A DNA stretch of 64,000 bases from GCF_055900595.2 NZ_CM148325.1, one strand, 5' to 3'. Counted from the first letter of the stretch, positions 11,157 to 12,284 are shown. A program made the numbers and translations. The notes: generated by a model from the letters alone, not told the origin.

Positions 11157-12284
11157 TTAACGGCGTCTATAGCCTTCCTCTAGCACCGCCTGTGTTCGAA
11201 CGAGTTCATCCGCGAGTCGTTTTTCATCAGGTAGTTGCATCTTATATTCGCTCGCCAGAACGGTGTTAGGCAAACCAGCCAGTGCATAATGCGCTTCGCC
11301 GGCTCCTTTCTCTGCACAGAGAACCAGACCGATGGGCGGATTTTCATCCGGTAGTGTCCAGTGCTCTTTGGCGTAGTTGAGATACATATTCATCTGTCCG
11401 GCATCGCTATAGCTGAATTTGCCCACTTTTAGATCGACGATTAGCAGGCAGCGTAAACGGCGGTGGAAAAACAGCAGATCGACACGAAACCAGTTGTCAT
11501 CAATGCGTAACCTTCGCTGCCGACCAACAAAGGCAAAATCATCCCCAAGTTCCAGCATGAAATCCATCAGGTGGTTGATCAGCGCCTCCTCAAAATCGGA
11601 TTCTGAGTATTCATCTTTCAATTCCAAAAATTCGAGCACAAAGGGATCGCGTATCGCCTGTTGCGGAAGAATATGCGTCTCGGCAGGGGCGTGTTGTTGC
11701 AGCATGGCTGATTTGTCATATGACAGTAGTGTCCGCTCATAAAATTGGGTCGCAATTTGCCGCTCTAGCTGGCGGACAGACCAACCACAGCGGAGCGCCT
11801 CTTTTTCATAAAAGCTGCGGGCGTCAGCGTTTTTAACGGAAAGTAGACGGACGTAGGTGGACCAGGGCAGTGGGAAGGATTTGGCAGACAGCGTCTGCCA
11901 AATCTTTGCCGATGGGAATTCTGCAGACGGTGTCTGCGGAATTCCCAATGGTGTTAATTCGCCAGACACTGTCTGGCGAATTTCAACATGTTGAAAAAAG
12001 AGGTAAAAAAGCCTCATTTGGCGTAAGTTTTTTGCAGAGAACCCACGCTTATACCTTAGACTTAAATCCTTTGATAGTCGCTTGATTAGCTGCGCACCAT
12101 ACGCAGCTCTGGCCTCACCACCTTGTTCAAATTCGACAATCCGTCGGCCAATTTCCCAGTATGTCGCGGTCATCAGCGCGTTAACGCTACGTACCGTTTC
12201 CGTTCGGGCGCTATCGACCAGATGAATAATGCCGTCGTGGATTTGCTGGTAGCCTGCTGTGGTTCCTTCTGAGAGCGATTCCAT
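11157..12284 (-). CDS. yhcG: YhcG-family protein (DUF1016, predicted PD-(D/E)XK nuclease fold)
   Basis: 375-aa ORF; size and position (after yhcH, opposite strand) match E. coli yhcG; N-terminal region contains a repeated I-x-Q-T-x-S-[GA]-[EK] peptide encoded by DNA palindromes. Family assignment is from recall. Confidence 0.75.
   Translation of the reverse strand: MESLSEGTTAGYQQIHDGIIHLVDSARTETVRSVNALMTATYWEIGRRIVEFEQGGEARAAYGAQLIKRLSKDLSLRYKRGFSAKNLRQMRLFYLFFQHVEIRQTVSGELTPLGIPQTPSAEFPSAKIWQTLSAKSFPLPWSTYVRLLSVKNADARSFYEKEALRCGWSVRQLERQIATQFYERTLLSYDKSAMLQQHAPAETHILPQQAIRDPFVLEFLELKDEYSESDFEEALINHLMDFMLELGDDFAFVGRQRRLRIDDNWFRVDLLFFHRRLRCLLIVDLKVGKFSYSDAGQMNMYLNYAKEHWTLPDENPPIGLVLCAEKGAGEAHYALAGLPNTVLASEYKMQLPDEKRLADELVRTQAVLEEGYRRR
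11878..11982. repeat. Three tandem ~27-bp palindromes at 39-bp periodicity inside the yhcG N-terminal coding region
   Basis: gatttggcagac-agc-gtctgccaaatc (11878..11904), gaattctgcagac-ggt-gtctgcggaattc (11916..11944, one arm mismatch), aattcgccagac-act-gtctggcgaatt (11956..11982); centres 39 bp apart, all in frame. Confidence 0.85.

Follow-up and report, generated by a model that had tools for sequence, protein, structure and literature searches.

Proteins of the YhcG, or DUF1016, family combine the Pfam domains PF17761 and PF06250 and correspond to COG4804 (Kosinski et al., 2005; PMC1189080). Members recur in type I restriction-modification (R-M) loci, integrative and conjugative elements and prophages, and the family has given no functional lead for 20 years. 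Homologues of yhcG are enriched near type I R-M systems, some of them lying between hsdM and hsdS (PMC9881135). The related PDC-S02 is a defence candidate proposed through 'guilt-by-embedding'; the one representative tested gave no protection against T4, T5 or T7. In Escherichia coli, deletion of yhcG is synthetically lethal with hypomorphs of dnaB, dnaN and parE, and in a network the gene is connected to HsdMRS, McrBC and recombinases (Hu et al., 2009; PMC2672614); the lethality is a hint of a role with DNA intermediates. The present analysis concerns the yhcG gene (11157..12284, minus strand) of a 64,000-nucleotide stretch of E. coli DNA (NZ_CM148325.1, assembly GCF_055900595.2; hereafter the window) and an element found inside the gene, a ~25-bp dyad-symmetric palindrome that sits at the same codon in nearly every DUF1016 gene examined. 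No prior description of an intragenic yhcG/DUF1016 palindrome was found in open-access papers and bioRxiv full text, although it may be described elsewhere; the family-wide palindrome is apparently undescribed.

The coding sequence of the window yhcG holds three palindrome units of ~25 nt each, repeated with a 39-nt (13-codon) period over codons 102-136. Unit 1 (ATTCGCCAGACAGTGTCTGGCGAAT on the sense strand; 11957..11981, minus strand) spans codons I102-E109 (IRQTVSGE) and occupies the family-conserved position, unit 2 (IPQTPSAE; 11918..11942, minus strand) contains one C·A mismatch, and unit 3 (IWQTLSAK) lies at 11879..11903, again on the minus strand. A fourth, solo unit (ATTCTGCAGACACTGTCTGCAGAAT; 11117..11141, recorded without strand) is found 16 nt past the yhcG stop, within the 59-nt gap that separates the stop codons of nanQ and yhcG. 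The sequence CAGACNNNGTCTG occurs four times in the 64 kb (0.02 expected), each time at yhcG, and a covariance model of the unit retrieves these four sites as its only matches in the window (E 3e-9 to 2.5e-6). Each unit is predicted to form a 12-16-bp hairpin on either strand, and the predicted fold of the three-unit array has an energy of -64 kcal/mol (z -10.9). An AlphaFold2 model of the protein (46-sequence alignment, pLDDT 80) consists of long N-terminal helices (aa 9-96), an unstructured segment (aa 97-140) and then a helical region with an alpha/beta core; the palindrome units encode exactly the unstructured stretch (11865..11996, minus strand; pLDDT < 50 at aa 108-129). A preliminary description of the window had put a palindromic array in the N-terminal coding region of yhcG; the array is real, with three units in the coding sequence, but its place is this disordered inter-domain linker. 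The sole other strong odd palindrome of the window (AATCATCCCGCGCACTGCGCGGGATGAGG, ~38365-38393, score 12/14) is unrelated in sequence to the yhcG units.

The distribution of the element was followed in two sets of homologues. The genome set comprises the DNA of 80 homologues from species genomes (38-66% amino acid identity) of beta- and gammaproteobacteria, Acidobacteria, cyanobacteria, Bacteroidota, Hungatella and Verrucomicrobia, together with metagenome-assembled genomes labelled Methanoperedens, Woesearchaeota and Altiarchaeales. The viral set comprises 80 homologues from viral contigs (27-61% identity), of which 56 loci were scored for palindrome position. Among the homologues first gathered, several metagenomic ones proved to be frameshifted and were left out. 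At ~66 of the 80 genome loci and ~48 of the 56 viral-contig loci the highest-scoring palindrome of the whole gene is found at the homologous offset, centred on the first base of a codon; in total the same codon carries it in ~115 of 136 homologous loci spanning 27-66% identity. Perfect palindromes are six-fold denser inside the homologues than in their flanks (0.63 against 0.11 per kb), and a palindrome score of at least 12/14 is reached by 44/80 genes as against 19/591 control windows. A covariance model trained on the genome set was also run on 773 kb of viral contigs independent of it, where its matches fall almost only at the homologous site. The model's matches upstream of hsdM in one locus (L089) are unrelated terminator-like hairpins and were ruled out.

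The architecture common to these elements is a dyad of ~25 bp with a 12-bp stem and a 3-nt loop, in which the outer ATT/AAT and the loop-adjacent C-G pair are nearly invariant. Symmetry extending to the centre was rejected: column 17 is A in ~78% of units regardless of column 19, with no covariation, which leaves a loop of 3 nt. The arms otherwise vary widely (CAGAC/GTCTG, GAGAC/GTCTC, TCGAC/GTCGA, GAATC/GATTC, GCGAC/GTCGC, CGCA/TGCG, TATCA/TGATA, ACAA/TTGT) and the encoded peptides shift with them (ILQTLSAKS, ISETVSRKS, ILSTLSKES, ISESLIRKS, IASAVRTQL, IVVSLIRQL, IVQQLVAQI, IRHQVGDKL). Distant homologues carry one to six copies of an 'x-Q-T-x-S-x-K/E' motif at the equivalent place, and tandem periods of 36-48 nt recur across many lineages.

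Since its position is fixed across the family, the element is inherited with the gene and not repeatedly inserted into it. A dispersed selfish palindrome dropped in frame into yhcG, of the kind represented by repetitive extragenic palindromic (REP) sequences and bacterial interspersed mosaic elements (BIMEs) or by the Rickettsia palindromic element (RPE), would account for copies both in frame within the gene and in intergenic DNA. REP/BIME-type dispersal is absent from the window, where the only four copies in 64 kb are all at yhcG, and across 5426 complete E. coli genomes the element is found at one to six places per genome with both strands counted; together with the fixed position this leaves such an origin practically no probability. 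When the gene's own palindrome was sought in its flanks it was present in only 3/80 loci, and the Salmonella and Citrobacter yhcG loci have no extra copy. For these reasons the idea that the nuclease generally acts on nearby dispersed copies was dropped. Two loci hold further copies of another sort. In L087 a decayed, internally deleted DUF1016 fragment (476-700), 1.4 kb upstream of an intact paralogue, keeps two near-perfect palindrome units and the subsequent 'KLSWSHYLILMRM' codons. In L118 the core of the gene's own palindrome (TTCCAGACACTGTCTGGAA) occurs twice, ~30 nt before the putative start as well as internally (4910-4944 and 5257-5291).

Covariation between the two arms was evaluated on an ungapped alignment of 72 units over the 12-bp helix, with 500 shuffles and with partners slid by 1-3 columns as controls. 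In the real alignment 92.4% of cells are paired, compared with 71.7% in the shuffled sets (0/500 shuffles reach the real value) and 20-44% with slid partners. Double-sided changes number 172 cells against 49.7 after shuffling, and 11 of the 12 pairs change on both sides. Within the units, synonymous positions that lie opposite a fixed partner are fixed as well: Ser is TCT in 53/60 units (21% gene-wide), Thr is ACA in 50/60 (22%), Ile is ATT in 55/56 (38%), and Lys is AAA in 40/40 and Glu GAA in 19/19 (56%). The same palindrome DNA is moreover read in the other two frames in intact open reading frames (ORFs), as 'PEFARQCLTNL' in L112/L115, as 'AEFATQCVANS' in L063 (21-bp arms) and as 'ANLTDGVCQIQ' in L114. 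Because the arms co-vary, the synonymous sites are fixed to pair and three frames are used, selection is on the nucleic acid and not on the peptide; what has been conserved is a nucleic-acid structure, of which the linker peptide is a by-product. The converse proposal, that a peptide I-x-Q-T-x-S-x-E/K is selected and the DNA palindrome incidental, could appeal to a motif that is widespread and repeated in homologues. It is contradicted by synonymous sites fixed to the pairing base, by coordinated, paired and non-conservative amino acid changes (for example Q..G to E..R or S..K), by intact genes that use all three frames of the same DNA, by the copy outside the ORF and by the predicted disorder of the encoded region. 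We give it hardly any probability, and on covariation, synonymous sites, the three frames, the model search and predicted disorder a protein-level explanation is excluded.

The mismatches in the stem bear on which nucleic acid is paired. Among 204 distinct units, 40 mismatches are of the G·T type (G·U in mRNA), 67 of the A·C type and 216 of other types, and in the 72-unit alignment the inner 11 pairs contain only four G·U cells, whereas G·U usually accumulates in an RNA helix that is being selected. G and C each occupy the centre in 91 units, and the variable triplets (CGC, CCG, TGG, CTG, GTG, CTC) differ within one E. coli gene and between close alleles, each being self-complementary. As there is no G·U excess, as the triplets differ yet remain self-complementary, and as the centre is G or C equally often, the pattern favours an element that pairs intrastrand as DNA, in a hairpin or cruciform, over a sense-mRNA hairpin or a sequence-specific operator.

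A sense-RNA hairpin in the yhcG transcript could serve as an attenuator, as a stability or processing site, or as an RNA bound by YhcG; in the last variant the bound RNA would be a cis-encoded inhibitor, like the repeats of type III toxin-antitoxin systems, that frees the nuclease when transcription stops. The very stable mRNA hairpins predicted for the array fit this reading, as do the recurrence of the 36-48-nt tandem periods in many lineages, the extra copies placed so that the transcript could include them (in E. coli 16 nt past the stop, in L118 ~30 nt ahead of the start) and the solo copies between convergent genes, where terminators are expected. Against it, G·U-type is the rarest mismatch class on the sense strand (40 against 67 A·C-type), with only the four G·U cells in the inner pairs; the internal units lack a U-tract behind them and were not called in the terminator scan; no Rfam family matches, a search of Rfam 15 at a permissive E-value returning only sub-threshold chance micro-RNA and small nucleolar RNA matches; and the fold is of the DNA-enzyme type (NucS, restriction enzymes), though the related Can2 and Card1 also cut RNA. 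A sense-RNA function is thus regarded as unlikely, while still carrying some weight.

A palindromic operator would be bound as duplex by dimeric YhcG or by another regulator for autoregulation, its half-sites co-evolving with specificity. A dyad with a 3-bp centre is typical of dimer sites, NucS-like nucleases are dimers, and in L118 the same core occurs both in the promoter or 5' leader and inside the gene. One protein could not, however, read all of the triplets that differ within one gene and between close alleles, uncontacted bases would need no symmetry, and all four Watson-Crick pairs are seen at stem positions 10-12 of the unit alignment, so that an operator is considered very improbable.

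The palindrome could instead have no function. On this account a quasipalindrome arose in a tolerant linker and perpetuates itself through template-switch mutation, by which one arm is repeatedly rewritten from the other; in E. coli such correction of quasipalindromes is well established as a source of mutations. In favour of this account, constraint on the protein is weak in a linker that is disordered and length-variable, the arms change in concert with few G·T intermediates, the centre is G or C with equal frequency, and palindromes persist in the decayed fragment of L087 and in non-coding solo copies. What it explains poorly is the retention of the element at one codon position in ~85% of homologues, down to 27% amino acid identity and across domains, in a linker whose other parts differ freely in length, since an element once lost could not be regained at the same place. 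Nor does it explain why comparable palindromes are rare in flanking genes (the 19/591 windows) or why the outer ATT/AAT and the loop-adjacent C-G pair are nearly invariant. We judge this explanation distinctly unlikely.

The reading that we prefer is of a self-contained cis element that travels with its gene. Such an element would suit a gene often placed in foreign operons and mobile elements without a control region of its own. It would either throttle expression of the downstream, nuclease-encoding part or be recognized by the YhcG nuclease itself, which is predicted to be structure-specific and NucS/Hjc-like. A control element inside the ORF would be useful because the gene often lands in foreign operons and encodes a potentially dangerous nuclease of the branched-DNA type. 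As a side effect it would be a hotspot for recombination and slippage, giving rise to the one to three tandem 39-nt units, the hypervariable tract and the solo copies of E. coli. A narrower form of this proposal takes the palindrome to be the cognate structured nucleic-acid partner of its own nuclease, a single-gene 'nuclease plus built-in hairpin' module in which the hairpin or cruciform (as DNA or an RNA copy) would control either the enzyme or its expression; it might, for instance, be a cis-encoded inhibitor or a switch that responds to supercoiling or transcription. Two other mechanisms were rejected: an inversion switch between internal and solo copies, as most homologues are single-copy and have no linked invertase, and programmed frameshifting, as the upstream U-rich run is specific to E. 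coli.

Several points weigh against the preferred reading. Some 10-15% of homologues have no clear palindrome, and in organisms other than E. coli solo copies are seldom seen outside the gene. The classes of mismatch speak against RNA only indirectly, since coding constraints or biased conversion could also deplete G·U, and the concerted arm change could stem from template-switch conversion and not from selection. A simple terminator scan called no unit. The units were, finally, first located by maximizing the palindrome score, a selection bias that the flank controls, the independent search with the model and the constancy of position and frame mitigate. Weighing all this, we hold the explanation as a whole, the observed parts and the putative cis element together, to be somewhat likelier right than wrong. 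For the functional claim alone, a gene-autonomous cis control or recognition element tied to a structure-specific nuclease, our confidence falls a little short of even, and the single-gene module is put forward tentatively, as a possibility that we would sooner doubt than assert.

The protein that contains the linker is intact (375 aa; ATG start, stop included) by ORF calling, Pfam and RefSeq annotation. It matches DUF1016_N (PF17761, E 9e-43, 146 bits) and YhcG_C (PF06250, E 9e-57, 192 bits), both well above gathering scores of ~33. The DUF1016_N region covers aa 19-184 (11733..12230, minus strand) and runs from the helices of aa 9-96 through the linker to further helices. The YhcG_C region (aa 208-360; 11205..11663, minus strand) is a NucS-like PD-(D/E)xK nuclease domain according to Pfam and the fold match, and the predicted model shows the restriction-endonuclease-like alpha/beta core. 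The catalytic codons assigned by alignment, all on the minus strand, are E245 (11550-11552), D269 (11478-11480), D284-L-K286 (11427-11435) and Q297 (11394-11396). These residues and Y301 are invariant in 18 enterobacterial sequences, and across ten aligned sequences of 38-80% identity the motif E...D...(D/E)xK with QxxxY is retained, with either D or E at position 284. The PD-(D/E)XK fold cited for YhcG in the preliminary description is borne out by the AlphaFold2 core, and the catalytic residues whose absence was to have refuted that description (E245, D269, D284-x-K286) are present. By alignment and model, YhcG is a member of the PD-(D/E)xK superfamily with a complete catalytic motif, for which nuclease activity is predicted. 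A sequence search of the PDB with YhcG gave no relative, its top matches being at chance level (E ~0.1), and NCBIfam has no model that matches the protein.

In E. coli the palindromes coincide with structural variation of the gene. Enterobacterial YhcG proteins of 349, 362, 375 and 382 aa differ by multiples of the unit, and E. coli genes have one to three units in tandem. Alleles that are otherwise 93-100% identical fall to 65-70% from nt ~180/225 of yhcG to the end of the array at ~415 (11870-12105 of the window against L169 and L171). The divergence over this ~200-nt tract is about equal to that between Salmonella and E. coli, and the tract looks like imported or recombined DNA bounded by the palindrome array. 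In L172 (E. coli strain 4314, NZ_CP103609.1) a junction falls exactly at the left edge of palindrome unit 3, where a foreign segment of ~480 nt (1000-1481), carrying a 101-aa 'transposase' ORF and hairpins of its own, replaces the 3' two-thirds of yhcG and the solo palindrome. Insertion sequence (IS) insertion at the palindromes was rejected for IS481 (L173) and IS3 (L174), both of which lie elsewhere; only the L172 junction is at a unit edge.

The window yhcG converges on nanQ (yhcH), the gene with which the nan operon closes (plus strand, ending at 11097), as had been stated in the preliminary description. The solo unit between the two genes is a strong hairpin on both strands and may act as a bidirectional terminator. 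No unit was picked up by the promoter/terminator scan; the solo copies, strong hairpins that separate convergent genes, have A/T-rich but short tails. Read past the yhcG stop, the solo palindrome (11098-11156) gives 'FQRFRILQT(V/L)S(A/G)ES', which resembles the internal 'FQRIEILQTVSGEF' of other alleles, so that the solo copy may be what remains of a yhcG fragment. In a read-through allele (P0017) the downstream copy is translated and yields the same peptide motif. On the other side gltD (12468..13886, minus strand) ends 183 nt from the yhcG start. The intergenic region (12285..12467, no strand) is homologous to the K-12 yhcG upstream region at 12285-~12413 and haplotype-specific at ~12414-12467, and, unlike its counterparts in K-12 and CFT073, it contains no palindrome unit. 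At the place of the K-12/CFT073 solo palindrome, just past the gltD stop, there is a haplotype-specific GC-rich inverted repeat (CAGCGCCGACTC / GAGGCGGCGCTG, 12426-12437 / 12447-12458); this hairpin (12426-12458) is probably the gltD terminator. In K-12 a divergent stationary-phase non-coding RNA, G0-10703, is reported to overlap the yhcG 5' untranslated region by 128 bp (PMC7967276).

Three haplotypes were counted at this junction in the 5426 complete E. coli genomes. The window type, gltD-yhcG-nanQ, is present in 2418; the gltD junction of the K-12 type, gltD-gltF-yhcADEF-yhcG-nanQ, in 1223; and the CFT073 and Nissle type, gltD-nanQ without yhcG, in 947. Within E. coli the gene is thus accessory and variably present at the gltD/nan junction. 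In Salmonella and Citrobacter the order is gltB-gltD-yhcG, a permease gene, an amidohydrolase gene and then nanQ, and because both share the gltD-yhcG order with the window, K-12 carries an insertion and the window no deletion; judged by gene order, gltD-yhcG adjacency is ancestral. The window had previously been taken to lie at a deletion junction: gltF-yhcADEF are indeed absent and gltD adjoins yhcG, but the polarity was wrong. K-12-type strains have an extra solo palindrome 13 nt past the gltD stop, and the solo copies bound an 8.3-kb indel block, of which the copy at 11117..11141 marks one end. The CFT073 junction consists of the nanQ-side flank, one palindrome and the same 13-nt gltD-side flank. 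As CFT073 keeps exactly both flanks and a single palindrome, its junction indicates that recombination between the two solo palindromes removed the 8.3-kb gltF-yhcG block in CFT073-type strains.

The gene is annotated as yhcG in RefSeq E. coli genomes, one of which is 100% identical over 2.3 kb, most others being at 95-96%. The region 10600-12900 has at least 99% identity in only 8 of the 5426 complete genomes, most again at 95-96%, and from this scarcity of close genomes the window is seen to derive from an uncommon E. coli lineage. In the identical genome (NZ_CP098223.1, a dog isolate) dcuC, which lies nearby, has an internal stop and is annotated as a pseudogene (L001, 1-645).

The genes around DUF1016 homologues give few further clues. 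An HsdM-type methylase is encoded upstream in 9/62 loci and HsdS downstream in 5/71, and other neighbours include relaxases and integrases. A conserved partner gene, which the preliminary description had suggested looking for, did not emerge: no neighbour is universal among the loci examined (62 upstream, 71 downstream). The window yhcG, with gltD and nanQ beside it, is not within a defence system. In three Flavobacteriia loci (L061, L064, L065; homologue at 6001-~7030) a GyrB/ParE-type gene lies upstream and a GyrA/ParC-type gene downstream, a curious arrangement beside the synthetic lethality of yhcG with parE in E. coli (PMC2672614).

While yhcG itself is a known, ordinary and uncharacterized gene in its ancestral position, the palindrome provides a concrete and cheap experimental handle on DUF1016 and shows cleanly how the structure of a nucleic acid can take precedence over the sequence of the protein it encodes. 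Both the 'QTxSxK / IVQQxVAQ' motif of YhcG proteins and their variation in length are explained by it, and so is the frequent structural polymorphism seen in E. coli at gltD-nan, with its three haplotypes. The DUF1016 family is very large (24,659 clusters at 50% identity match at E ≤ 1e-3). The built-in-hairpin module, if true, would be a self-contained control device in tens of thousands of bacterial, archaeal and viral genes, of a kind not yet described.

Compared with its own family, the window protein is a full-length YhcG, 98% identical to other E. coli YhcG proteins and sharing the same two Pfam domains and the E-D-(D/E)xK motif; there is no difference at the protein level, and the intragenic palindrome is absent from the family descriptions found. 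To the NucS/EndoMS and archaeal Hjc-type PD-(D/E)xK nucleases YhcG is ~15% identical, its N-terminal part is unrelated to theirs, and its activity is predicted only. PADLOC identifies a strong hidden Markov model match to the defence candidate PDC-S02 (PDLC04807, E 9.3e-136) and some homologues lie between hsdM and hsdS, whereas the window copy stands beside gltD and nanQ and not defence genes, and the candidate status is itself putative. REP sequences with their REP-associated tyrosine transposases (RAYTs), and the hairpin ends of IS200/IS605, resemble the present case in that a nuclease-type gene is linked to short, structure-conserved palindromes with, in E. coli, extra flanking copies; the yhcG palindrome differs in being inside the ORF, in lacking genome-wide dispersal and in its association with a PD-(D/E)xK and not an HUH/Y1 fold. 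Type III toxin-antitoxin systems (ToxI/ToxN) also link short tandem structured units (~36-39 nt) to a nuclease gene and share the logic of a labile nucleic-acid partner, but the yhcG units are within the coding sequence and mostly one per gene, the fold is not that of ToxN, and the covariation has no RNA-type signature. A dyad DNA element tolerated in frame at a domain boundary is also seen in the gix/hix recombination sites of tail-fibre genes and the Rickettsia palindromic elements, from which the yhcG element is set apart by the lack of a linked invertase or alternative cassette and by its vertical conservation at one position.

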